A stretch of 32,000 nt of DNA from Trichodesmium erythraeum IMS101 (GTDB taxonomy: Bacteria > Cyanobacteriota > Cyanobacteriia > Cyanobacteriales > Microcoleaceae). The translations under genes were made by a program, and so were the position numbers. Positions 1 through 12,912 of the stretch are shown one piece after another. The notes under the pieces are model-generated. The model was not told the DNA's origin. It searched no databases and saw nothing but the letters and a program-made list of their open reading frames with translations. Within the stretch, counting starts at the first letter, position 1. Each line of letters starts with the position of its first letter. Location: contig NC_008312.1 in the NCBI RefSeq assembly GCF_000014265.1, positions 5,700,001 to 5,732,000 of the forward strand, given 5' to 3'.

Positions 1-1
1 T

Positions 2-592
2 GGGGGACCATTGTTAAATAGTGCTGGAGAACTCATCGGTGTTAATACTGCTATACTTACTCCTAGTCAATTAGGGGGTAATATTGGTATTGGCTTTGCT
101 ATATCTATAGATAAAGTCCCAGAGTTGCTCAAGGCAGTTCGAGAAAGACGAGCACCTTTAGTCGCTCAACATTCAAGAAGTAGGATGTTTGATGAGGACT
201 TTGCTAAAAAATTAGACTTTGATGCTTTAATTGAAGTTCAAGGCAATTTAGATGGAGAATCTAATGTATTACCTGTAGATAATAGTTACTATGATCTTTA
301 TGCTTTTAAAGGTAGAGCAGGTCAAAAAATTTCTATTGATATGAGTAGTAATCAAATAGATTCTTACTTGATTTTATTAAACTCAGAAGATCAAGAATTA
401 GCTCAAGATGATGATAGTGGGGAAGACAAAAATGCTAGGATTATAATTATATTACCAAAGGATGGAACTTATAAGTTATTAGCAAATTCTTATGAAGCAG
501 GAGAGTCAGGAAAGTATGAGTTGAAAATTGAAGCAATTTCACCTAAAATGAGAATTTTATTTGAGCAAGAAAAGAGTAACTTTTATAGATAA
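2..592 (+). CDS. Trypsin-like (HtrA/DegP-type) serine protease, 3' partial, with a C-terminal pre-peptidase (PPC)-like domain
   Basis: The frame is open from the window edge. It reads GGPLLNSAGELIGVNTAI, the tail of the GNSGGPL active-site Ser motif of S1 proteases. The C-terminal ~90 aa (YYDLYAFKGRAGQKISIDM...DSYLILL...DGTYKLLANSYEAGESGKYELKIE) fit the PPC beta-sandwich pattern. The 5' end lies outside the window. Confidence 0.75.
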   Translation, partial: GGPLLNSAGELIGVNTAILTPSQLGGNIGIGFAISIDKVPELLKAVRERRAPLVAQHSRSRMFDEDFAKKLDFDALIEVQGNLDGESNVLPVDNSYYDLYAFKGRAGQKISIDMSSNQIDSYLILLNSEDQELAQDDDSGEDKNARIIIILPKDGTYKLLANSYEAGESGKYELKIEAISPKMRILFEQEKSNFYR

Positions 593-1247
593 ATTGGATG
601 ATTTTTTCTCGAATACTTATTTATTAGGAAGAGAATATAACATTCAGAGAATAGAGTGGAGGTTGATTACTGATACCCAGTATCTCCATTGATGATTTTT
701 TTTCAAGTTATAGCTATTGTTAAATAAATGATTGCGGGATAAGAAGATTATACTTTTAGTTTTAGATTTTATCTCAACTAAAAATATAATATATAGAAAA
801 AATTTAATATATAATATATAGAAAAAAAATTTATAATTAACTAAGTTACGATAAATTTTTTCATAATTTGATTTTTAATAAGACTTAGGTAAGCATCTAA
901 AATTATACACAAGAAGTATATGTTAAGGTTGTTCCCTCTACTAGATAAAGTGATGGATATGTATCCCACTTTTATTCATATTTAAACATTGATTTTAAAC
1001 TCTGTTCTACTGATGAAGACAGTGTACCTATTGTGTAATTATCTTCATTGAATAACTTAATTTATGTTGAATGTTATTTTTTCCAGCTTATAATTACTAG
1101 GCTTATGTATAGGAATATTTTTAATAATTGTTATACATACTAACTAAAATCTTCAATAATGTTTTTTAGTTAATAATTATTTGTGGTTATTTCCTACTAT
1201 GCTAGTAGACTAGTTGGATAATTTAATTAATATATTTGAGGTGATTA

Positions 1248-1946
1248 ATGCATCAAACAAAATTTTGGGCGATCGCTCCTTTTGGTCTACTAACTATTTT
1301 GGGAAAACCTTTACTTTCCCCCGCACTTCCAATTCATCAGGCCGTTGTTAATTTTAGCTATGTAGATGAAAGTTCAACGAAGTCTGAAATTTTTGCCCAG
1401 GATACTTCATTTCCCAAAGTGACTCCATCACCAGAAATGACTCCGACTTTAGAGGACAGTCCATCACCAGAAATGACTCCGACTTTAGAGGACAGTCCAT
1501 CACCAGAAATGACTCCGACTTTAGAGGACAGTCCATCACCAGAAATGACTCCGACTTTAGAAGACAGTCCATCACCAGAAATGATCCCTCCCACCCAAGA
1601 ACCAGAAATAATCTTACAGCAACCAGGAATGCTTAGTGATGATGATTTAGTACTTCCATCTGATGAAAGTGTTTACGATGAACATACTTTTGAAGGGACA
1701 GAAGGTCAGGTAGTAACTGTAACTGTAGAAAGTCCTGATTTTGATACTTACTTAGCAGTTTTTAGTCCTGATACTAAACTACTGGGAGAACATGATGATA
1801 TTAGTAAGAAAAATACAAACTCTCAACTAACAATTACTTTACCTATGACAGGTAAATACCGTGTAATAGTTAACTCTTACGATAAAACAGGTAGAGGTGA
1901 GTATAATTTACAAGTAATTCAATCAGGGCAAACATCAGATTTTTGA
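1248..1946 (+). CDS. Secreted repeat protein with a C-terminal PPC-like domain
   Basis: The N-terminus is hydrophobic and signal-like (FWAIAPFGLLTILGKPLL). It contains five SPSPEMTPTLED repeats. The C-terminal segment (YDEHTFEGTEGQVVTVTVESPDFDTYLAVF...TGKYRVIVNSYDKTGRGEYNLQV) is paralogous to the C-terminus of the 2..592 product. Confidence 0.7.
   Translation: MHQTKFWAIAPFGLLTILGKPLLSPALPIHQAVVNFSYVDESSTKSEIFAQDTSFPKVTPSPEMTPTLEDSPSPEMTPTLEDSPSPEMTPTLEDSPSPEMTPTLEDSPSPEMIPPTQEPEIILQQPGMLSDDDLVLPSDESVYDEHTFEGTEGQVVTVTVESPDFDTYLAVFSPDTKLLGEHDDISKKNTNSQLTITLPMTGKYRVIVNSYDKTGRGEYNLQVIQSGQTSDF
1424..1590 (+). repeat. 36-bp in-frame tandem repeat, about 4.6 copies
   Basis: The unit TCCATCACCAGAAATGACTCCGACTTTAGAGGACAG starts at 1424, 1460, 1496, 1532 and 1568. 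Across the full copies I saw one substitution (GAG to GAA in copy 4). Confidence 0.95.
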
Positions 1947-2510
1947 AGTTCTTCCCAAAGAAGCGTATTATTTACTGAATATTTTTGGCGTTGCTGAAGA
2001 CAAGGGCTGAAAATAAGATTTGCTCTTCAAGCACTTTTTCCCTGCCAAGATCATGTTCTGTTGAATACACATAATAAAAGTTTTGTGTACACAAGTGTTG
2101 CTAAATTTATTCTGGGATAAGCTTTGTGGTGATTTATCATAATTAGATCTCTCGGAAAATTAATCTCAAATTTTTAAATTTACTAGGCTAAAACTTAGTT
2201 TACCCAGAGATCTATTTAATTCTGGTCAATGATAAGCACTTAGGTGAGAGCGATCGCGATGATCTAAAAACATCCTTACTCTAAAAGTAGTACGATCATA
2301 TTTTTTTTTTCAACAACATTTTCACCAAATATTATTTTATCCTATTTGCTCTCTTTGTGCAACAAAGCTTTTGACTTGGTAAATTGAATTAGTAACTTGC
2401 TTGCTTTACAAGGCGATCACTACAGCTTTAAGTACGCTTTTGGTTAAACATTAGATTTTCATCATCTCACCAAAACTATTGAAAATAAAACCATAAGGAT
2501 ATATCAAACA

Positions 2511-2855
2511 ATGGATAATGATTTAAATATTCAGGTTGTACCTGTAGAGTTAGAGAATGGCAATGTAGTAAGAGTTGAAGCTACTGTTCTTAATGCATCA
2601 GGAGATACTTCTGATCAAGAAATTGAATCAGATGTGGCAGCTAATATCAGACCGCTCAAAGAAGTAACTGATACAGTAAAGGAAATTGCTGCAACTGTGA
2701 AAGCTTCCATAGATCAAGTTAAACCAACTAAAGCTTCTGTTGAATTTGGCTTAGAATTTGGTTATGAGTCAGGAAAGCTAACAGCTATGATCGTGAAAGG
2801 AACGGCAAAAGCAAATCTAAAAATTACTCTACATTGGGAAAATATTTCAAAATGA
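2511..2855 (+). CDS. trypco2-like (trypsin co-occurring domain 2 / CU044_2847-like) small protein
   Basis: 114 aa. The layout matches my memory of the family: an N-terminal beta segment (IQVVPVELENGNVVRVE), a helical middle, and a C-terminal VEFGLEFGYESGKLTAMIVKGTAKANLKITLHWE motif. It sits directly upstream of a trypsin-like protease and overlaps it. Confidence 0.75.
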   Translation: MDNDLNIQVVPVELENGNVVRVEATVLNASGDTSDQEIESDVAANIRPLKEVTDTVKEIAATVKASIDQVKPTKASVEFGLEFGYESGKLTAMIVKGTAKANLKITLHWENISK

Positions 2856-3775
2856 GGAATAGTATAGATGCCGGACGCTTGTACGAGTTATTTCGTAGTT
2901 GCATAGTACGAATTAAAACCTCAAAGAGTTTTGGTACAGGCTTTTGGGTCACTCCTGGACATATTCTTACCTGTGTTCATGTTATTGAGGGGAATGATCA
3001 CGATAGTATTGAAATTGTCTGGAAGCAAAATAATTATCAGTGTACAGAGATTAATATTTTTCAAGATGCTGACCTGGCTTTACTTAAGGTTGAAATAGAA
3101 AGTCATCCTTGTGTGTTTTTGGATGAAGACGCTTTACCAGGAGATGAGCTCTATAGTTATGGTTATCCTGAGCAAAAGCGAGATGGGGCTTCAATTACAA
3201 TGATTTGTGAAGGGCCTACAGATAATAAGAGGTTTTTGACGGTTAAGGATGAGAATGTTAGACCTGGGTTTAGTGGCGCTCCTTTATTTAATCAAAGAAC
3301 GTTCATGGTTTGTGGTGTGCTCAAGAGTGAACGTAAGTTTCCTGTTAATGGTAATGTACTACGGGCTTTGGGTGGACAAGCAATTCCAACTGCGAGAATT
3401 TTTGATAAGTGGCCTAATTTAAAAATATCTAATCAGGAGTTCCATCAAAAGTATCAAAGTTGGAGAAAAGAACTGGAAGTAACTAAACAGCAAGAACAAA
3501 ATTCACCACAATATTCGGCACAATATTCTATAAATAGTTCTTCTGAAAATCCGAGAATTCAATCTTTAAAAAATCAGAAACAAAGAATAGAGTCTCAGAT
3601 AGCTGAACTAGAAAAACTAAGTCATTTATGTAATCAAGATATAAAGGCAGAAACTAATTTGGCTAAAAGAAATCAGCTTCATACACAAATGGATAATTAT
3701 TCGACAGAAATTAACGAGTTATATGACAAGGTTCAGCAAATTATAGCTCAAATTAATAAGTTTCAAAATACTTAG
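2852..3775 (+). CDS. Trypsin-like serine protease (predicted effector) with a C-terminal coiled-coil adaptor tail
   Basis: Catalytic triad context: His in HILTCVHV, Asp in DADLALLKV, Ser in RPGFSGAPLF. The ATG at 2852 overlaps the upstream TGA (ATGA at 2852-2855), so I prefer it to the TTG at 2834. The last ~70 aa are a heptad-rich helix and form copy 1 of the 266-bp cassette. Confidence 0.85.
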   Translation: MRNSIDAGRLYELFRSCIVRIKTSKSFGTGFWVTPGHILTCVHVIEGNDHDSIEIVWKQNNYQCTEINIFQDADLALLKVEIESHPCVFLDEDALPGDELYSYGYPEQKRDGASITMICEGPTDNKRFLTVKDENVRPGFSGAPLFNQRTFMVCGVLKSERKFPVNGNVLRALGGQAIPTARIFDKWPNLKISNQEFHQKYQSWRKELEVTKQQEQNSPQYSAQYSINSSSENPRIQSLKNQKQRIESQIAELEKLSHLCNQDIKAETNLAKRNQLHTQMDNYSTEINELYDKVQQIIAQINKFQNT

Positions 3776-3804
3776 TTTATACAAGTAATTAAAAAGTTAT
3801 TTAA

Positions 3805-4041
3805 ATGTCAGATATTCAGAAATTAAAAAGTTTAGAAAATCGGCAACAAAGAATAGAGTCTCAGATAGCTGAACTAGAAAAACTAAGTCATTTATGTAAT
3901 CAAGATATAAAGGCAGAAACTAATTTGGCTAAAAGAAATCAGCTTCATACACAAATGGATAATTATTCGACAGAAATTAACGAGTTATATGACAAGGTTC
4001 AGCAAATTATAGCTCAAATTAATAAGTTTCAAAATACTTAG
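3805..4041 (+). CDS. Stand-alone coiled-coil adaptor module, 78 aa (copy 2)
   Basis: Intact ORF. The N-terminus resembles that of the 4608 gene (MSDIQKLKSLENRQQRIESQ against MSYIQKLKSLENQKQRIESQ). The remainder is identical to the protease tail. There is no clear Shine-Dalgarno sequence, so expression is uncertain. Confidence 0.5.
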   Translation: MSDIQKLKSLENRQQRIESQIAELEKLSHLCNQDIKAETNLAKRNQLHTQMDNYSTEINELYDKVQQIIAQINKFQNT

Positions 4042-4070
4042 TTTATACAAGTAATTAAAAAGTTATTTAA

Positions 4071-4307
4071 ATGTCAGATAGTCAGAAATTAAAAAGTTTA
4101 GAAAATCGGCAACAAAGAATAGAGTTTTAAATAGCTGAACCAGAAAAATTAAGTAATTTATCTAATCAAGACATAAAGGCAGAAAGTAATTTGGTTAAAA
4201 GAACTCAGCTTCATACACAAATGGATAATTATTCGACAAAAATTAATGAATTATATGATAAATTTCAGCAAATTATAGCTCAAATTAATAAGTTTCAAAA
4301 TACTTAG
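4071..4307 (+). pseudogene. Degenerate coiled-coil module (copy 3)
   Basis: Same ATG context as copy 2, but codon 20 is TAA (GAG TTT TAA in place of GAG TCT CAG). The rest aligns with copies 2 and 5. Confidence 0.7.
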
Positions 4308-4336
4308 TTTATACAAGTAATTAAAAAGTTATTTAA

Positions 4337-4578
4337 ATGTCAGATAGTCAGAAATTAAAAAGTTTGGAAAATCGGCAACAAAGAATAGAGTTTTAAATAG
4401 CATAGCTGAACCAGAAAAATTAAGTAATTTATCTAATCAAGACATAAAGGCAGAAAGTAATTTGGTTAAAAGAACTCAGCTTCATACACAAATGGATAAT
4501 TATTCGACAAAAATTAATGAATTATATGATAAATTTCAGCAAATTATAGCTCAAATTAATAAGTTTCAAAATACTTAG
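4337..4578 (+). pseudogene. Degenerate coiled-coil module (copy 4)
   Basis: Shares the TTT TAA nonsense with copy 3 and adds a 5-nt insertion (CATAG). Otherwise nearly identical to copy 3. Confidence 0.7.
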
Positions 4579-4607
4579 TTTATACAAGTAATTAAAAAGT
4601 TATCTAA

Positions 4608-5693
4608 ATGTCATATATTCAGAAATTAAAAAGTTTGGAAAATCAGAAACAAAGAATAGAGTCTCAAATAGCTGGACTAGAACAACTAAGCAATAAATGT
4701 AATCAAGAGATAAAGGCAGAAACTAGTTTAGCTCAAAGAACTCAGCTTAATACACAAATGGATAACTATTCGACAGAAATTAATGAACTATATAACAAAC
4801 TTGATCATATTGAAAATGAAATTGAAAATCTCAAGTTAAAGGAGAAAAGTTTGAGTTCAAACGATTATTTAGACAACCCTAAAAATCAGCAATTATTAAA
4901 ATTTGAGCAATACTTGTATGATATCGATTTTGAAAAAGCTTTAAAAACTTTTCAAAGAATTACATCTCAGTTTAATAAGGAGGGAGATGTAGCTTTGTTT
5001 TTCATAGAAAAATGTTTGACTAATCGAGGAGATTTATGTTTAAAAAGACTAAAAGATGACTTATTTTCAGAGACTTATAATATTCACAGGCAACATTTTC
5101 GTCCCTGTTTTGTCACATATACTTTAGGAAATTTAGAAGGAGTAATACAAGGAATAGCTAAATTTTTTGACGTTAAAAAAGAAGAAATGACTGTAGAATT
5201 AGTTATCAATAAAATAGGTAATTCTTTACAAAATAATTCGGTTTTGTTTATAGAAATTAATTGTGATATTAGTCAGCCTAGTGACATAGATCCATTAATA
5301 CCTTGGTTTATTAATGTTTTTTGGAAACCTTTGAGAGAAAAAGTAAACGAAGTAGCTAAGGATTATGAAGGTATTAAAGTTGTAGCTGTAATAACTTCTA
5401 ATCTATTACTTAATTCCAGATTTTCAAACTCAGAATTATCCTCCTACTATAATCGCAAAAGTAGAATTTTTTCTAGAGATAAATTAGTCAAAATACCTTT
5501 AGAAAAATGGAAAAAAGAAGATATTAAAAAATGGTTGACTAAATATGGTAATCCTCGTTTAAAAAACACAGATAAAGATACTATAGCTGAAAAAATTTAT
5601 AATGCAACTGACAAAGGAAGACCTACAGATGTTTGCCTAGCTTTACAACAAAAACAATGGCAAAACTTAATATATTCAAACCCTACCTATTAA
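4608..5693 (+). CDS. Coiled-coil adaptor (copy 5) fused to a degenerate P-loop/STAND-like domain (iSTAND-like)
   Basis: The first ~70 aa are homologous to the protease tail. The remainder has NTPase-like strand/helix spacing: DVALFFIEKCLTNRGD where a Walker A should be (no GxxxxGK[ST]), SVLFIEINCD (Walker-B-like), IKVVAVITSN (sensor-1-like) and KLVKIPLEKWKKEDIKKWL (STAND-like helical start). That it is a CDS is secure. The fold assignment is by eye. Confidence 0.6.
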   Translation: MSYIQKLKSLENQKQRIESQIAGLEQLSNKCNQEIKAETSLAQRTQLNTQMDNYSTEINELYNKLDHIENEIENLKLKEKSLSSNDYLDNPKNQQLLKFEQYLYDIDFEKALKTFQRITSQFNKEGDVALFFIEKCLTNRGDLCLKRLKDDLFSETYNIHRQHFRPCFVTYTLGNLEGVIQGIAKFFDVKKEEMTVELVINKIGNSLQNNSVLFIEINCDISQPSDIDPLIPWFINVFWKPLREKVNEVAKDYEGIKVVAVITSNLLLNSRFSNSELSSYYNRKSRIFSRDKLVKIPLEKWKKEDIKKWLTKYGNPRLKNTDKDTIAEKIYNATDKGRPTDVCLALQQKQWQNLIYSNPTY

Positions 5694-5711
5694 ACAATTA
5701 TAAGTTCAAAG

Positions 5712-6707
5712 ATGAATTACCATTTTGAAAATAATCCTAAAAATCGTCCTTCTAAACCTCATTCTGATTCACCTAAAAAAGTTGAACCCTACATTGCGCC
5801 AGATGAGTTAATTGATGCAGTAAACTTAGCAATTTTTCTGCGCCGTCCTCTCTTATTAGAAGGAGAAGCAGGCTGTGGAAAAACTCGATTACCACTCGCA
5901 GTTGCTTATGAATTAGGATTACCTTTTTATCGTTGGAATATTCGTTCAACTGCTAAAGCACAAGAAGGTTTATATGAATATGATGCTATCCTCAGACTCC
6001 ATGATGTTCAAACTCAAAAATTAGAAATAAAAAATAATAATCAAGACAAAGATAAAACTTATAGAAATCCTAGTAACCCTGAAAATTATCGAACTTTTGG
6101 AGCAATTGGTAATGCTTTTCTTTCAAATTGCCCGGCAATAGTTTTAATTGATGAAATAGATAAAGCTGACGTAGATTTTCCTAATGATTTACTAACAGTT
6201 TTAGATGAACCTTGGGAATTTAAAATTAGAGAAACTGGAGAAACAATTACCGCTAAAACTAATTGTCAGCCAATTGTAATTATTACTAGTAATAAAGAAA
6301 AAGGAAACTTACCAGCTCCTTTTCTACGTCGTTGTATTTATTATTATCTGAAATTTCCAGATGACCCTAAACAACTTCAAAAAATTGTTGATATTCACTA
6401 TCAATATAAACCAGACTCAGAAATTCTCAAAAAAATTAATTCCTCAAATAATGAATTAGTACAACAAGCTGCTCAACTATTTATTAAAATTAGAGAAAAT
6501 AAAGGCTTATTTAAAATTCCAGGTACAAGTGAATTTTTAGATTGGTTATATGCACTTTGTAGTTGTCAGACAAAACAAAATCCTCAGCTTCCTTATCCTC
6601 TTGAGAAATTAAAAGAAGGAGAATTAATTCCTTATCGAGAATTAATTTTTAAAATTCGTCAAGATTGGCAAAAAAATACCACTTTTCCTCAAACTAGTGA
6701 TTTATAA
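5712..6707 (+). CDS. MoxR-like AAA+ ATPase (AAA_5 type)
   Basis: Walker A LLEGEAGCGKTRL, Walker B IVLIDEIDKAD, sensor-1 IVIITSN, and an Arg-rich LPAPFLRRC segment. Size and order are typical of MoxR partners of vWA proteins. Confidence 0.9.
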   Translation: MNYHFENNPKNRPSKPHSDSPKKVEPYIAPDELIDAVNLAIFLRRPLLLEGEAGCGKTRLPLAVAYELGLPFYRWNIRSTAKAQEGLYEYDAILRLHDVQTQKLEIKNNNQDKDKTYRNPSNPENYRTFGAIGNAFLSNCPAIVLIDEIDKADVDFPNDLLTVLDEPWEFKIRETGETITAKTNCQPIVIITSNKEKGNLPAPFLRRCIYYYLKFPDDPKQLQKIVDIHYQYKPDSEILKKINSSNNELVQQAAQLFIKIRENKGLFKIPGTSEFLDWLYALCSCQTKQNPQLPYPLEKLKEGELIPYRELIFKIRQDWQKNTTFPQTSDL

Positions 6708-6774
6708 AATATCTCAAACTTCAACTTATTTGAACTACATTTTATTCACTTAAGCACAAAACTTTCAACCACTC

Positions 6775-7839
6775 ATGTTTGAACCTAACTCTTATTTAAC
6801 AACTCTTTTTTATCATTTGCGTCAAGCAGGTTTTAATCTGAGTATTAAAGAATACTTTTCGGTAAAAGATGCAATTAAAGGAGGTTGGGGAACAAAAAAT
6901 CAAGAAGACTTAAAAAAACTCCTACGCTTACTATGGTGTAACTCTTGGGAGCAACAACAGCATTTATCCCTAATATTTGATAGGATTTTTGAATCTGAAA
7001 AAACTCAAGAAACAACACCAAACCCCTCCACAAAAAATCAAAAAAATTTAAATTATGAACAACTTGAATCAGACTCATCAACTCCTATTTCTCCTACTAC
7101 AAAATTTCAATCTTCTTCAACAGAAATAACTAAACCAACCACTGAAAAACTATCCCCACTACCTATCACTAATATTCAACCAATACGAGAACATGAAAAC
7201 GACGCCGAATTTTATACTTATTATCCCATTTCTCGCCGTTTTATGGTTTATAGTTGGCGATATTTACGTCGCCCCATTGCTGACGGACTTAGAGATGTTT
7301 TAGATATTAAAATGACTGTTGAACAAGCTACAAAACAAGGATTTTTCTTACAACCAGTCTACCGTCGACGAGAAAAAAATCATGCTCATTTACTAATTTT
7401 CGTAGATCAAGAAGGTTCCATGACTCCCTTTCATCATTTCAGTCAAGACTTAGTAGAAACAGCTAAATATGAAAGCTCTATAGAAACAGTAGACGTTGCT
7501 TATTTTCATAACTTACCAGCAAAATATATTTATCAAGATCCTTTTTTGACTGATAAAATTTCCTTAGAAACTGTCTTAAATAAATGTGATAGTGAAACTA
7601 GAATTTTAATCATTAGTGATGCAGGTGCTGCTAGGGGGTATCGTCAGCGAACAAGAGTTTCAGGCACAACTGAAGTAATATGGGAAATTCAACAGCATAC
7701 TAACTTAGTAGCATGGCTTAACCCAGTTCCAAAAATGCGTTGGAATAACACTACAGCTAGTATTATCTCTCATTTAATACCTATGTTTCCTATGGATCAA
7801 GAAGGTTTAAGACAAGCTATTTTGACTTTACAAAGATAA
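6775..7839 (+). CDS. von Willebrand factor A (vWA, CoxE-like) protein, partner of the MoxR ATPase
   Basis: C-terminal vWA pattern: HLLIFVDQEGSM (MIDAS position) followed by RILIISDAGAARG. There is an N-terminal helical region and a low-complexity S/T/P/Q linker. It lies immediately downstream of the MoxR gene. Confidence 0.8.
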   Translation: MFEPNSYLTTLFYHLRQAGFNLSIKEYFSVKDAIKGGWGTKNQEDLKKLLRLLWCNSWEQQQHLSLIFDRIFESEKTQETTPNPSTKNQKNLNYEQLESDSSTPISPTTKFQSSSTEITKPTTEKLSPLPITNIQPIREHENDAEFYTYYPISRRFMVYSWRYLRRPIADGLRDVLDIKMTVEQATKQGFFLQPVYRRREKNHAHLLIFVDQEGSMTPFHHFSQDLVETAKYESSIETVDVAYFHNLPAKYIYQDPFLTDKISLETVLNKCDSETRILIISDAGAARGYRQRTRVSGTTEVIWEIQQHTNLVAWLNPVPKMRWNNTTASIISHLIPMFPMDQEGLRQAILTLQR

Positions 7840-7846
7840 TATAGAA

Positions 7847-9430
7847 ATGACAGAAATAACAGATAAAATTATCGCTCAGAATAAAGTAGAACAATTTGTA
7901 AGTCGTTTTGAAGATTCCTATTTCTTATTAGCTTCCCATGTCGCTTTACCTCTAGTATTAACTCCAGAATTAGTCAATTATCTCAGAATTGAATTTCTCA
8001 AAAGTGAAAAAGTTCCTTGGATTTCTGAAGCTGATTTATTGTTATCTAATTTGTGTCGTCCAGTTGGTTATGAACTTTATGTAATGGATGAAGGAGTAAG
8101 AATTTATTTACTCCAAAAATTAGCAGAAAACCCAAAGTTTGGTCAGAAAAGAATTAAAGAAATTGCCCGTTTATTACTGAGCTATATTAAATATTTAGCT
8201 AAAACTAATCATTTTATTGGAGACAAAGAACTACAACTTCAGACATGGGGTGCAATGTTGTATTTAGATACAGAGAAAACTGTCAAGGAAATAGCTTTTG
8301 CTATCTCTCAATGTATAGATAAAGCAGAGTTAGCTCGTTTACTAAAAATTACCCAAGATTTTAAACAACAAATAGCTTCATCAGGACAATTTCAAGACTT
8401 TTTAGACTATGCTCAACTTTGTAATGAATTACTTAGAGAACCTGAAAAAGTAACCCTAGAAAAAATAACACATTCATACCAGGTCGCAAAGCTTGAATTA
8501 ACTATACCAAAAATAGTTTTATCAAAAGAATTAGATCTAGGGGAATTATTTTATTTTGAAGTTGTAAAAGTTGATAATTTTGGCAATATTATTGAGCGTA
8601 GTCAGGAAAGCGCTAGGCAGAAAATAGAATATTTGGGTAATGAAATTAAATTGGAAATGGTTTATATTCCTGGGGGTACTTTTACCATGGGTTCTCCTAA
8701 AAGTGAAGTGGATAGCAGAGATAATGAACGGCCCCAACATCAGGTAACTGTTCCTTCCTTTTTTATGGGCAAATATCCAGTAACTCAAGGACAGTGGAAA
8801 GCGATCGCCTCTCGAACAGAATTAAAAGTAGAACGAGACCTAGACCCAGAGCCATCATATTTTAAAGAACCATACGAAAGTATAGATAGATGGCAGAGAC
8901 CAGTGGAGCTGGTTAGTTGGAACCAAGCAGTAGAATTTTGTCAAAGACTATCAAAACTAACAGGAAGAAAGTACAGGTTACCCAGTGAAGCCGAATGGGA
9001 ATATGCTTGTCGTGCAGGAACGAGTACACCATTCTACTTTGGAGAAACCATAACATCTGAGTTAGCTAACTATGATGGCAACCATACTTACGGCAAAGGG
9101 CCAAAAGGAGAAAATAGAGAGCAAACAACTCCTGTAGGTAAATTTCCACCAAATGCTTTTGGTTTATATGATATGCACGGAAACGTTGATGAATGGTGTG
9201 CTGACGACTGGTATGATAATTATGTAGGAGCTCCTACAGATGGAAGTGCTAGGATTAATAGTAATAAAAATAGTAATACTAATAGTACAAAAGTATTTCG
9301 TGGCGGCTCCTGGATCTACTATCCTTGGTGGTGTCGCTCTGCGCTCCGCGGCAACTTTAACTCGGACGAGGCGGACAGCATCTCTTTTGGTTTTCGTCTT
9401 GTGAGTTTCCCCCCCAGGACTTTTGAATAG
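7847..9430 (+). CDS. N-terminal helical domain of unknown function fused to a formylglycine-generating-enzyme/sulfatase-modifying (FGE-sulfatase, FGS) domain
   Basis: From about residue 260: MVYIPGGTFTMGSP, ERPQHQVTVPSFFMGKYPVTQGQW, VSWNQAVEFCQRLS, YRLPSEAEWEYACRAGT, FGLYDMHGNVDEWC, RGGSW...FGFRLV. These are the canonical FGE-sulfatase motifs. The start is 7 nt after the vWA stop. Confidence 0.9.
   Translation: MTEITDKIIAQNKVEQFVSRFEDSYFLLASHVALPLVLTPELVNYLRIEFLKSEKVPWISEADLLLSNLCRPVGYELYVMDEGVRIYLLQKLAENPKFGQKRIKEIARLLLSYIKYLAKTNHFIGDKELQLQTWGAMLYLDTEKTVKEIAFAISQCIDKAELARLLKITQDFKQQIASSGQFQDFLDYAQLCNELLREPEKVTLEKITHSYQVAKLELTIPKIVLSKELDLGELFYFEVVKVDNFGNIIERSQESARQKIEYLGNEIKLEMVYIPGGTFTMGSPKSEVDSRDNERPQHQVTVPSFFMGKYPVTQGQWKAIASRTELKVERDLDPEPSYFKEPYESIDRWQRPVELVSWNQAVEFCQRLSKLTGRKYRLPSEAEWEYACRAGTSTPFYFGETITSELANYDGNHTYGKGPKGENREQTTPVGKFPPNAFGLYDMHGNVDEWCADDWYDNYVGAPTDGSARINSNKNSNTNSTKVFRGGSWIYYPWWCRSALRGNFNSDEADSISFGFRLVSFPPRTFE
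9299..9400 (+). other. Candidate DGR variable region (VR) at the 3' end of the FGS gene
   Basis: By my count there are 12 A in 102 nt and about 57% GC, in a locus that is about one-third GC. The protein reads GGSW-IYYPWW-CRSA-L-R-GNFNSDEADSIS-FGFR. That is the conserved scaffold of CLec/FGE-fold DGR targets, with idiosyncratic residues where template-repeat Asn codons usually sit. No cognate TR or RT is in the window. Confidence 0.45.
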
Positions 9431-9464
9431 CCCTTTGCCCTCTTGCCCTCTTGCCCTATTTAGT

Positions 9465-9491
9465 CTCGCCTTTGGCGAGCCGAATTTTTTT
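9465..9491 (+). terminator. GC hairpin plus T-run: operon terminator and/or DGR-associated hairpin
   Basis: CTCGCC (9465-9470), TTT loop, GGCGAG (9474-9479), then CCGAATTTTTTT. It lies 35 nt after the FGS stop codon. Confidence 0.5.
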
Positions 9492-10363
9492 GAGAAATTA
9501 TCAAATGGCCACCAAATCAATAGATTTAATAGATATAACAATAGAAAAAAGCTCAGAACACTAAATTATGCAAAATTTTGTTTAAAAGCCGAAATTAATG
9601 ACTTAAACTGTGCTTCGACTGGTATCATAAATATGAAGCTTAGGCTCAAAAACCTAAAATTTAGGGCAGGAAGAAAATTCCCAGAAAATTTATCCTCTTA
9701 TCCCGTAATTAAATAAAGACACCCAGGTTTAAACCCGTAGTCAAAGTCTGGAATGCTAGTGTCTACTTGCAAAAAATAGTAGTATTATTTTTAGGTTGAA
9801 TTTCCTTAAGTTCAAGTTTTTTGTTTTACCTTAGCAAGCATATTAATTTATACAACTAGATAATAGTGTTGCTTCTCAGGAAAATTTCTGAATACTTGAT
9901 TATCTCTTACTAACGAATTTTTGTTGAATAAAAAGTCATGTATATAGGCAAGTTTCTCCATCTAATCTTATAATATCACAAAAAAAAATCTGAGAAGGGG
10001 AGGAAAGATTTTGCGCCGCGTCGCTTTTTCGGAGCTCCAGAAAATGAAATAAAAGTTGGCGATTTTCTACTGAGGAAGAATAAATGGAAAAATTCGACTA
10101 TGGGAAAAAAATAGAGGGGTGCTTCACAGAATGAGTTAAATAAATTAGTCTTACTTTTGGGAAAATTATTAAATGCTTGATTCTATTTTCCTAAAAAAAA
10201 GAGTTGAATAAAAAGTCATGTATATAGGCAAGTTTCTCCATCTAATCTTATAATATCACAAAAAAAATCTGAGAAGGGGAGGAAAGATTTTGCGCCGCGC
10301 CTCTTTTTCGGAGCTTCAGAAAATGAAAAAAAAAGTTGTTGATTTTCTACTGAGGAAGAATAA

Positions 10364-10459
10364 ATGGAAAAGTTCGGCGGTGGGAAAGAATATTGGAGTG
10401 CTTCACAGAATGAGTTAAATGAATTAGTCTTGCTTTTGGGAAAATTATTAAATCCTTGA
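10364..10459 (+). CDS. Array-encoded small ORF, 31 aa (MEKFGGGKEYWSASQNELNELVLLLGKLLNP)
   Basis: GAGGAAG lies 5 nt upstream of the ATG. The frame is shared with units 3, 4, 6 and 7. Coding status is unproven. Confidence 0.3.
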   Translation: MEKFGGGKEYWSASQNELNELVLLLGKLLNP

Positions 10460-10642
10460 TTGTATTTTCCTGAAAAAAAAGAGCTGAATAAAAAGTCATG
10501 TATATAGGCAAGCTTCTCCATCTAATCTTATAATATCACAAAAAAAATCTGAGAAGGGGAGAAAAATTTCTGCGCCGCGCCGTTTTTTCGGAGCCCCAGA
10601 AGATGAAATAAAAGTTGGCGATTTTCTACTAAGGAAGAATAA

Positions 10643-10747
10643 ATGGAAAATTTCCGCGATGGGAAAGAATATTGGAGTGCTTCAGAACATGAGCTAAATG
10701 AGTTAAATGAATTAGCCTTGCTTTTGGGAAAATTATTAAATCCTTGA
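10643..10747 (+). CDS. Array-encoded small ORF, 34 aa (MENFRDGKEYWSASEHELNELNELALLLGKLLNP)
   Basis: AAGGAAG lies 5 nt upstream of the ATG. It differs from the 31-aa form by an in-frame 12-nt indel. Confidence 0.3.
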   Translation: MENFRDGKEYWSASEHELNELNELALLLGKLLNP

Positions 10748-10930
10748 TTGTATTTTCCTGAAAAAAAAGAGTTGAATAAAAAGTCATGTATATAGGCAAG
10801 CTTTTCCATCTAATCTTATAATATCACAAAAAAAATCTGAGAAGGGGAGAAAAATTTCTGCGCCGCGCCGCTTTTTTGGAGCCTCAGAAGATGAAATAAA
10901 AGTTGGTGATTTTCTACTAAGGAAGAATAA

Positions 10931-11035
10931 ATGGAAAAATTCGGCGATGGGAAAGAATATTGGAGTGCTTCAGAACATGAGCTAAATGAGTTAAATGAAT
11001 TAGCCTTGCTTTTGGGAAAATTATTAAATGCTTGA
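10931..11035 (+). CDS. Array-encoded small ORF, 34 aa (MEKFGDGKEYWSASEHELNELNELALLLGKLLNA)
   Basis: AAGGAAG lies 5 nt upstream of the ATG. The frame is intact. Confidence 0.3.
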   Translation: MEKFGDGKEYWSASEHELNELNELALLLGKLLNA

Positions 11036-11510
11036 TTGTATTTTCCTGAAAAAAAAGAGTTGAATAAAAAGTCATATATATAGGCAAGCTTCTCCATCTA
11101 ATCTTATAATATCACAAAAAAAATCTGAGAAGGGGAGAAAAATTTCTGCGCCGCGCCTCTTTTTCGGAGCTCCATAAGATGAAATAAAAGTTGGTGATTT
11201 TCCGCTGAGGAAGAATAAATGGAAAAATTCGGCGAAGGGAAAGAATAGCGGAGTGCTTTACAGGATGAGTTAAATGATCTGAATGAGCTAAATAAATTAG
11301 TCTTGCTTTTGGGAAAATTATTAAATCCTTGATTGTATTTTCCTAAAAAAAAAGAGTTGAATAAAAAGTCATATATATAGGCAGGCTTCTCCATCTAATA
11401 AGATCACAAAAAAAATCTGAGAAGGGGAGGAAAGATTTTGCGCCGCGCCGCTTTTTCGGAGCCTCAGAAGATGAAATAAAAGTTGGTGATTTTCTACTAA
11501 GGAAGAATAA

Positions 11511-11615
11511 ATGGAAAAATTCGGCGATGGGAAAGAATATTGGAGTGCTTCAGAACATGAGCTAAATGATCTAAATGAATTAGCCTTGCTTTTGGGAAAA
11601 TTATTAAATGCTTGA
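11511..11615 (+). CDS. Array-encoded small ORF, 34 aa (MEKFGDGKEYWSASEHELNDLNELALLLGKLLNA)
   Basis: AAGGAAG lies 5 nt upstream of the ATG. The frame is intact. The TATAAT box of this unit is deleted (CTAATAAGATCAC). Confidence 0.3.
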   Translation: MEKFGDGKEYWSASEHELNDLNELALLLGKLLNA

Positions 11616-11798
11616 TTGTATTTTCCTAAAAAAAAAGAGTTGAATAAAAAGTCATATATATAGGCAAGTTTCTCCATCTAATCTTATAATATCACAAAAA
11701 AAATCTGAGAAGGGGAGAAAAATTTCTGCGCCGCGCCTCTTTTTCGGAGCTCCAGAAAATGAAAAAAAAGTTGGTGATTTTCTACTAAAGAAGAATAA

Positions 11799-11894
11799 AT
11801 GGAAAATTTCGGCGATGGGAAAGGATATTGGAGTGCTTCACAAAATGAGTTAAATGAATTAGTCTTGCTTTTGGGAAAATTATTAAATGCTTGA
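11799..11894 (+). CDS. Array-encoded small ORF, 31 aa (MENFGDGKGYWSASQNELNELVLLLGKLLNA)
   Basis: A weaker AAGAAG lies 5 nt upstream of the ATG. The frame is intact. Confidence 0.25.
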   Translation: MENFGDGKGYWSASQNELNELVLLLGKLLNA

Positions 11895-12912
11895 TTATAT
11901 TTTCCTAAAAAAAAGAGTTGAATAAAAAGTCATACATATAGGCAAGGTTCCACATCTAATCTTATAGTATCACAAAAAAATCTGAGGAGGGGAGGGAAAA
12001 TTTTGCGTCGCGTCGCTTTTTCAGAGCTCCAGAAAATGAAGCCAAAATGGTGATCTCCTCTGAGGAAGAATATGTGAGAGAGAATAGCGGAGTGCTTCAC
12101 AGGATAAGCCAAATGAATTAGTCTTGCTTTTGGGAAAACTATTAAATCCTTGATTGTATTTTCCTAAAAAAAAGAGTTGAATAAAAAGTCATGTATATAG
12201 GCAAGCTTCCTATTTAATCTTATATTATCACAAAAAATCTGAGAAGGGGAGGAAAGATTTTTCGACGCGCTACTTTCCCGGAGCTCCAGAGAATGAAATA
12301 AAATGGTTTGTGACTTTTCACTAAAGAAGAATAAATGAAAAAATTCGACTATGGGAAAAAAATAGAGGGGTGCTTCACAGAATGAGTTAAATAAATTAGT
12401 CTTACTTTTGGGAAAATTATTAAATGCTTGATTCTATTTTCCTAAAAAAAAGAGTTGAATAAAAAGTCATGTATATAGGCAAGCTTTCCATCTAACCTTA
12501 TAATATCACAAAAAAATCTGAGAAGAGGAGGAAAGACTTTGCGCCGCGCCTCTTTTTCGGAGCCACAGAAGATGAAATAAAAGTTGATGATTTTCTACTA
12601 AGGAAGAATAAATGGAAAATTCGACCATGGGAAAGAATAGCTAAGTGCTTCACAGAATGAGCCAAAAGAATGGGAAAATTATTAAATCCTTGATTGTATT
12701 TTCCTAAAAAAAAGAGTTGAATAAAAAGTCATGTATATAGGCAATATTCCCCATCTAATCTTATATTATCATAAAAAATCTGAAAATGGAAGGGAAATTT
12801 CTGTAGCGCGCCGCTTTTTTTTTTGGAGCTTCAGAGAATGAAAAAAAATCATTTGTGACTTTTCATTAAAGAGGAATAGATAGAAAAATTCGACTATAAT
12901 TCTCCCCTTAAT

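Follow-up and report, generated by a model that had tools for sequence, protein, structure and literature searches.

Tery_3719 of Trichodesmium erythraeum IMS101 ends in a very probable variable region of the remote diversity-generating retroelement DGR2

Introduction

In diversity-generating retroelements (DGRs), the reverse transcriptase (RT) is error-prone and random bases are inserted opposite the adenines of the template. We analysed a stretch of 32,000 nt from Trichodesmium erythraeum IMS101 (contig NC_008312.1, positions 5,700,001 to 5,732,000 of the forward strand), hereafter called the window, in whose own coordinates features are given. A preliminary description, made from the letters of the window, had proposed that the 3' end of one of its genes, here identified as Tery_3719, is a DGR variable region (VR) whose template repeat (TR) lies elsewhere. 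The closest described system is DGR2 of the same strain (Doulatov 2004; Pfreundt 2014; Vallota-Eastman 2020; Paul & Eren 2022). The VR of Tery_3719 very probably belongs to this same system, from which nothing differs in kind.

The DGR of Bordetella phage BPP-1 resembles the locus in several respects: the differences between TR and VR are adenine-specific, the VR occupies the last part of a gene with the C-type-lectin fold (mtd in the phage), and an invariant 3' homology, in BPP-1 the initiation of mutagenic homing (IMH) sequence, is followed by a GC inverted repeat. BPP-1 has a single target next to its template, whereas DGR2 has at least 12, of which Tery_3719 is about 3 Mb away from the template, and the host of DGR2 is cellular rather than a phage. 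The hairpin behind Tery_3719 is, unlike that of BPP-1, followed by a T-run and terminator-like, and the 3' homology is not a pure G/C 14-mer. Hairpins of the Tery_3719 type have a 6-bp stem and a 3-nt loop (TTT, TCT, AGA or GAA, depending on the copy), whereas those of phage DGRs have stems of 7–10 bp and 4-nt GRNA loops (PMC3240598).

The DGR of Treponema denticola (TvpA and remote targets) is, like DGR2, cellular, with several remote targets of the FGE-sulfatase fold served in trans by one template. Its targets are surface lipoproteins of a pathogen, whereas Tery_3719 sits in a predicted conflict-system operon. Comparable operons are the iSTAND MoxR-vWA systems (Kaur et al. 2020; Dore et al. 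2024), which likewise have iSTAND, MoxR-like AAA+ and CoxE-type vWA genes in a row, a Trypco1-trypsin pair, and a DGR-diversified FGE-sulfatase/C-type-lectin (FGS) domain whose template is possibly located elsewhere in the genome. The common form of these systems has the FGS domain fused to the vWA protein, as on the metagenome contig L037, whereas the window encodes it as a separate open reading frame (ORF) with an uncharacterised N-terminal region of 260 amino acids (aa).

Results

The target gene and its adenine-poor 3' end

The protein of this gene matched ABG52777.1 of T. erythraeum IMS101 (P0122) with 100% identity over all 527 residues. Its C-terminal FGS domain was recognised with Pfam (PF03781, aa 270–519 of 527, E = 5e-60), while the N-terminal ~260 aa gave no Pfam match. 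The gene corresponds to row RVP_5707847 in Table S2 of Paul & Eren 2022 (PMC8867640; 5707847–5709430, +, DUF323, Tery_3719, TR2, hypervariable yes), the coordinates of which equal those of the window gene plus 5,700,000. In that table Tery_3719 is a remote DGR target, homologous to TR2 and hypervariable in Tara metagenomes, and ABG52777.1 is also among the remote variable proteins of Vallota-Eastman 2020 (PMC7517822 Table S1). The feature is already in print for exactly this gene and hence is not novel. The gene and the elements at its 3' end were as follows.

7847–9430, forward strand: target gene Tery_3719 (ABG52777.1/WP_011613108.1), ORF of 527 aa, stop codon TAG at 9428–9430
9299–9388, forward strand: mutagenic part of the very probable VR, with 17 codons matching adenine-containing TR2 codons
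9389–9417, forward strand: 3' TR/VR homology (IMH-like), 29 nt, GGTTTTCGTCTTGTGAGTTTCCCCCCCAG, identical to TR2 positions 87–115 and holding a C7 run (9409–9415)
9418–9427, forward strand: end of TR/VR identity, last codons ahead of the stop
9431–9457, forward strand: CT-rich tract CCC TTTGCCCT CTTGCCCT CTTGCCCT, right behind the stop codon
9465–9479, forward strand: GC hairpin CTCGCC-TTT-GGCGAG, from a scan for terminator-like structures, then CCGAA and a T7 run (9485–9491)

The preliminary description had singled out 9299–9400 as an adenine-depleted GC island, and a recount bore this out: 12 A in 102 nt (11.8%) and 56.8% GC, with window means of 34.8% A and 32.6% GC. These were the fewest A of any 102-nt stretch. 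When the whole window was scanned, the 102-nt stretches with no more than 12 A all started between 9296 and 9393, and starts of those with a GC fraction of at least 0.55 were confined to 9295–9324. The A-rich Asn/Ser stretch said to precede the island was also found, since 9240–9298 contained 47.5% A and codes for INSNKNSNTNSTKVF. The peptide quoted for the island, with GGSW, CRSA and FGFR, was re-read from the ORF translation as RGGSWIYYPWWCRSALRGNFNSDEADSISFGFRLVSFPPRTFE, followed by the stop codon. Likewise, the reported absence of a template and an RT from the window agreed with our searches: blastn retrieved neither a further copy of the island nor a TR-like copy within the 32,000 nt, and tblastn with a DGR RT query yielded no RT there. 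An antisense ORF at 9164–9541 (125 aa) was taken as a by-product of the GC-rich island.

The variable region and template TR2

The published TR2 sequence (120 nt) was taken from Table S1 of PMC8867640, and its reverse complement aligned to window positions 9303–9422 without a gap. In the 86-nt mutagenic part of this alignment (9303–9388), 14 of the 26 TR adenines were changed and none of the 60 non-adenines (Fisher p = 2e-9). Nine of the adenines were replaced by T, three by G and two by C, 12 were kept, and all 14 changes were at codon positions 1 or 2. The island is adenine-poor because the allele carries these substitutions. The codons of TR2 are AAC AAC TAT CCT AGG AGG TGT CGC TCT GCG AAC CGC AAC AAC TAT AAC TCG GAC GAG GCG GAC AAC AAC AAT ATT. 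Of these, 17 bear adenines, 26 in all, which are the figures given for this element, together with 12 VR genes, by Pfreundt 2014 (PMC4143802). At the 17 codons the window allele reads ATC TAC TAT / TGG TGG / CTC / GGC AAC TTT AAC / GAC GAG / GAC AGC ATC TCT TTT. Positions 9299–9302 (CGTG) precede the published TR2 and were included in the VR since other copies keep CG-G and vary there at the third base of the codon alone.

The C7 run, already located at 9409–9415 and suggested as a possible IMH-like element in the preliminary description, lies inside the 29-nt 3' homology and is therefore IMH-like. IMH and IMH* are the non-identical repeats that end VR and TR (Wu 2018, PMC5758913), and a 35 bp 3' conserved stretch of Pfreundt 2014 (PMC4143802) apparently occupies the same place as the 9389–9417 homology. 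Only two non-adenine mismatches were present in the 120-nt alignment, a G at 9418 and a T at 9422 in the VR, with C at both positions in TR2.

The prediction had been that a cognate sequence exists elsewhere, next to an RT gene, and differs from the island only where it has adenine itself; TR2, gapless in alignment and next to a published RT, fits this, with adenine-specific mismatches across the mutagenic tract. With high confidence, we assign 9299–9417 as the VR through which DGR2 of T. erythraeum IMS101 targets Tery_3719 from a remote locus, in agreement with the proposal that an FGE-sulfatase/C-type-lectin gene ends here in a DGR variable region. The perfect match of the window allele to TR2 at non-adenine positions is a detail added here, and the allele belongs with the intact targets.

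TR1 of DGR1 of IMS101 was also tried as a template and rejected, as its alignment needed a gap and its many mismatches were not specific to adenines.

Action in trans and activity in strain IMS101

The RT of DGR2 (Tery_1728/1729) is located at 2,632,880–2,633,791 (PMC8867640). RT and TR2 are about 3.08 Mb away from the VR, and DGR2 therefore acts on this gene in trans, as had been anticipated. The multi-target DGR of T. erythraeum that the preliminary description mentioned is the one of Pfreundt 2014 (PMC4143802). According to that paper, TR2 RNA is a highly expressed 265-nt transcript that starts at 2632789 on the reverse strand, the DGR2 RT gene of IMS101 has a stop at codon 39 and is a pseudogene, and all VRs were unchanged when resequenced in IMS101. 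An intact RT was reported there from a wild Trichodesmium metagenome, with a wild TR of 95% identity. Since the RT is reported to be a pseudogene in IMS101, change at the window allele has probably ceased in the cultured strain. The window VR showed no scaffold mutation, and both its 3' homology and its hairpin were intact; judged by these features, it looks fully competent as a target.

Continued diversification of this VR in IMS101 could be explained if the intact RT of DGR1 (Tery_1035) used the abundant TR2 RNA. Tery_1035 is marked as not degraded, and remote targets including ABG52777.1 are printed in its row (Vallota-Eastman 2020, PMC7517822 Table S1); the high expression of TR2 RNA (Pfreundt 2014, PMC4143802) and the intact scaffold, 3' homology and hairpin of the window VR would also suit this explanation. 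We nevertheless regard it as improbable, because the resequenced VRs were unchanged (same source). Further, four independent T. erythraeum-like assemblies (P0122, P0127, P0131 and P0133) had an identical VR allele. The template of DGR1, TR1, also differs greatly from TR2, and a DGR RT as a rule accepts only the RNA of its own template, which likewise counts against a substitution by the DGR1 RT.

Variable region copies in related sequences

We collected 14 VR copies, 13 of them distinct (L044 and L045 have the same allele), from at least 10 different genes, with a scaffold-codon DNA pattern (MAG_R02, MAG_R03) and with protein-guided look-ups (L039, L040, L041, L043, L044, L045). The preliminary description had suggested a search for other FGS genes with the same 3' scaffold, and these copies were near-identical from CGTGGCGGCTCCTGG to the hairpin, with the exception of a fixed set of columns. 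Codon positions were compared in 10 related copies, chosen as intact before the TR2 sequence was at hand. In 9299–9394, the variable columns at codon positions 1, 2 and 3 were 16/32, 18/32 and 3/32, whereas in the upstream coding DNA (9002–9238) they were 31/79, 29/79 and 60/79. The synonymous sites of the VR are frozen and positions 1 and 2 are scrambled, which is the reverse of ordinary divergence and the pattern that repeated overwriting from a single template leaves.

The codons at template adenines had also been predicted to be hypervariable. Orthologues of the window gene in other assemblies (P0001/P0132, P0134, P0457) each had a different VR peptide, in line with the published entry 'hypervariable: yes', and the four T. 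erythraeum-like assemblies named above shared the window allele. Within single protein clusters at 90% identity, members differed massively, chiefly at the VR codons; the cluster of P0003 contained at least 10 different VR peptides, and P0140–P0155 were a further example. Copies from other species recurrently differed from IMS101 TR2 at template positions 18 and 69, which agrees with a template that differs slightly from one species to another. Diversification of the TR2-type VR family continues in related natural populations.

The 3' homology (9389–9417) was identical in 11 of the 14 copies, two of which are the same allele. The three mutants were L040 (11430–11689, substitutions), L041 (1720–1960) and the first copy on L009 (2596–2790), the last two with an extra base and a frameshift, after which their peptides end VSVPPQD-. 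L040 is an orthologue of the window gene in another lineage.

Copies in metagenome-assembled genomes (MAGs) and metagenomes were mostly truncated within the FGS domain or just past the VR, and contigs often ended there (L040, L043, L044). We suspect that assemblies break at the multi-copy VR cassette and that DGR targets in Trichodesmium MAGs are perhaps systematically under-recovered. The T. erythraeum-like orthologues P0127, P0131 and P0133 equalled the window protein except for a few substitutions. Most of these were at aa 404–425 (for instance NHTYGKGPKGENRE versus KYTYSDGPKGEYRG), in a region that corresponds to window positions 9053–9123 (aa 403–425), and P0133 had three further substitutions at aa 448–457. 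The pattern has the look of gene conversion from a paralogue, or of MAG chimerism.

Several searches were directed at the template and the RT. A scan with the pattern GGCGGCTCCTGG-N18-TGTCGCTCTGC of a genome collection without the source genome retrieved no TR2, only paralogous VRs (Trichodesmium MAG_R02 and MAG_R03) and sequences of other bacteria; the matches outside Trichodesmium were VRs or TRs, mostly of cyanobacteria. A metagenome scan with a TR guessed from the VR variation (GGCGGCTCCTGGAACAACAATCCT) gave only templates on contigs of 46–64% GC that were without the Trichodesmium 3' sequence. The guessed TR was wrong by one base for IMS101, as the third codon of TR2 is TAT and not AAT. 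Among viral contigs, two DNA patterns and one RT protein query yielded no match or no close relative. An RT protein search gave no Trichodesmium RT among the best 120 matches or among the members of the ten clusters listed. When a neighbouring RT was sought beside seven FGS homologues, no TR2-family locus was found, and P0416 led to a locus of another template family (L042).

This locus, positions 1–5300 of TARA contig ERR1726958 k127_905198, is a complete DGR in cis of a third Trichodesmium-like template family, with VR peptides that end GFRLVCDGGRTL. It consists of a large target gene, bAvd, a 352-aa RT, a TR (at about 4040–4190) and a 295-aa target with only an FGS domain, in this order. 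The template family differs from both IMS101 templates printed in PMC8867640. VRs of the L042 type were present in many proteins labelled as Trichodesmium, including Tery_4351 of IMS101 (P0016).

The tract and hairpin behind the stop codon

Three repeats had been described at 9434–9457. Their positions were correct (TTTGCCCT at 9434–9441, CTTGCCCT at 9442–9449 and at 9450–9457), but only two of the octamers are exact, as the first differs by one base. The tract showed only C/T changes in 13 of the 14 VR copies, which come from various genes and species; one copy was without one octamer.

The GC hairpin at 9465–9479 was confirmed as well. It was the sole feature of the centroid DNA fold, and 9395–9495 as a whole folded with no unusual stability (z = −1.1). 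In the TR2 family, each of the 11 copies whose 3' homology is intact kept a GC stem of 6–7 bp with a 3-nt loop, and at the same place L018 had a different stem sequence, TTCCCGC/GCGGGAA, a compensatory variant. In all three copies with a mutated 3' homology (the first copy on L009, L040 and L041) the stem was broken by a mismatch. In BPP-1, efficient homing requires a hairpin or cruciform immediately behind the VR, and what counts in this element is its structure rather than the sequence of the stem (Guo et al. 2011, PMC3240598). By analogy, the hairpin at 9465–9479 is a candidate DGR target hairpin or cruciform, which fits the role suggested in the preliminary description; with its T-run, it may also be the terminator of the gene.

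The published TR2 sequence ends at the point of divergence, and both the CT-rich tract and the hairpin lie beyond that end. In the L042 family, the template parts from the first VR at the stop codon and is without the tract and hairpin tail. A hairpin and a T-run, with other stems, follow both VRs of that family, and a CT-rich tract follows the first, so that the tract accompanies at least one of the two. The conservation of the CT-rich tract and hairpin behind the stop codon and the broken stems in the three 3'-homology mutants are additions made here, and modest ones.

Possible exchange of 3' cassettes

The cassette of VR scaffold, CT-rich tract and hairpin was near-identical in at least 12 different genes. 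Such likeness could have been maintained by recombination or gene conversion among FGS paralogues, in which case the island would be a structural motif and no retroelement would be involved. One group of orthologues carried either of two cassette types, depending on the assembly (P0002/P0139 versus P0136/P0138), which suggests cassette exchange and would agree with this. Gene conversion, however, would not limit differences to the adenines of a separate non-coding template (14 of 26 adenines, none of 60 non-adenines), nor would it reverse the usual codon-position pattern, and RT, template and target are adjacent on the related contigs L037 and L042. We consider an origin without a retroelement very improbable, even more so than the use of TR2 RNA by the DGR1 RT. 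It is hardly credible that the high GC content is an artefact caused by foreign DNA, or by a small mobile element inserted at the end of the gene together with a terminator. In spite of the sharp local rise in GC (33% to 57%) and the terminator-like hairpin with a large tandem array downstream, the island is in frame, codes for conserved strands at the C-terminus of the FGE-sulfatase domain (the match to Pfam extends to aa 519), is present in orthologues and paralogues, and matches TR2.

P0002/P0139 and P0136/P0138 belong to one 90% cluster and were about 100% identical over the first 270 aa, with a C-terminus either of the TR2 type (GFRLVSFPPRALK) or of the other family (GFRLVCDGGRPL). Proteins with a caspase and an FGS domain likewise showed both types of C-terminus (L015 versus the P0010 cluster). 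These pairs suggest an exchange of VR cassettes between template families, or chimeric assemblies. Tentatively, and with more doubt than belief, we propose that the module of ~65 nt behind the stop codon, made up of the CT-rich octamers, the hairpin with its 3-nt loop and the T-run, is a portable tag that lets one template serve at least a dozen dispersed genes, and that VR cassettes are swapped between genes and template families, by which sensors would be re-assigned between DGRs.

The upstream genes

Tery_3719 is the last gene of an operon and starts 8 nt behind the vWA gene. The genes upstream were as follows.

2511–2855, forward strand: Trypco1 (Pfam)
2834–3775, forward strand: trypsin-like peptidase (Pfam)
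4608–5693, forward strand: iSTAND (PF19995, E = 1e-11)
5712–6707, forward strand: MoxR-like AAA+ ATPase (AAA and AAA_5 matches)
6775–7839, forward strand: CoxE-type vWA (PF05762 VWA_CoxE, E = 2.5e-8)

The same gene order was observed on the orthologous TARA contig L040. From their domain content, these genes are predicted to form a ternary conflict system of the iSTAND MoxR-vWA type. FGS is the commonest effector domain of the iSTAND-type system, and FGS domains of such systems have been linked to DGRs, with the template possibly elsewhere in the genome (Kaur et al. 2020, PMC7159879). The effector was not fused to the C-terminus of the vWA protein here; the FGS domain is part of a separate ORF. 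Neither the N-terminal 261 aa of the Tery_3719 protein nor the vWA protein had significant similarity to the vWA-FGS fusion protein of L037. On that contig (Ga0209591_10010986), positions 400–8950 are a cis version of the split arrangement in the window, with RT, template and target side by side.

Two ORFs with bacterial pre-peptidase C-terminal (PPC) domains (11–592 and 1248–1946) are located upstream of the Trypco1-trypsin pair, and L040 encodes a PPC protein and a fusion of trypsin with PPC in the corresponding region. On its 5' side, the conflict locus may therefore reach beyond the core genes.

A tandem array at 9923–12819 (288-bp period, 10.4 copies, 86% matches) begins about 430 nt past the VR hairpin. 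Minus-strand ORFs of ~95 aa repeat with the array and are probably spurious. No Rfam family reached its gathering score in the window, the array included. Other highly expressed tandem-repeat non-coding RNAs of the IMS101 genome are described by Pfreundt 2014 (PMC4143802), where no mention of this array was found.

Discussion

Some points weigh against the assignment of the VR to DGR2. The TR2 sequence and the status of the RT were taken from published tables and text rather than from our own reading of the DNA of the DGR2 locus. The entry 'hypervariable: yes' comes from read recruitment, in which reads of the numerous paralogous VRs could have been cross-mapped to this one. The allele shared by four assemblies gives no sign of recent diversification at this VR within that lineage. 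The Tery_3719 protein is most likely a diversified sensor or binding module of the conflict system, a role drawn from the literature on related systems.

By established DGR biology, TR2 RNA would be copied into complementary DNA (cDNA) by the error-prone RT of DGR2, and the cDNA would replace the homologous 3' end of target genes. The replacement would be guided by the invariant 3' homology (9389–9417) and probably also by the hairpin (9465–9479). In this way as many as 17 codons could be rewritten on the face with which the C-type-lectin/FGE-sulfatase domain binds its ligand, and the scaffold codons for GGSW, CRSA and GFR would be left untouched.

The value of this check is that a DGR target was correctly recognised from raw sequence alone. 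The conservation of the CT-rich tract and hairpin, the stem breaks and the apparent swapping of cassettes may help to define the target sites of remote DGRs. One retroelement can rewrite the binding surfaces of at least a dozen proteins in a bloom-forming nitrogen fixer, and its target Tery_3719 closes a predicted immune-like operon.

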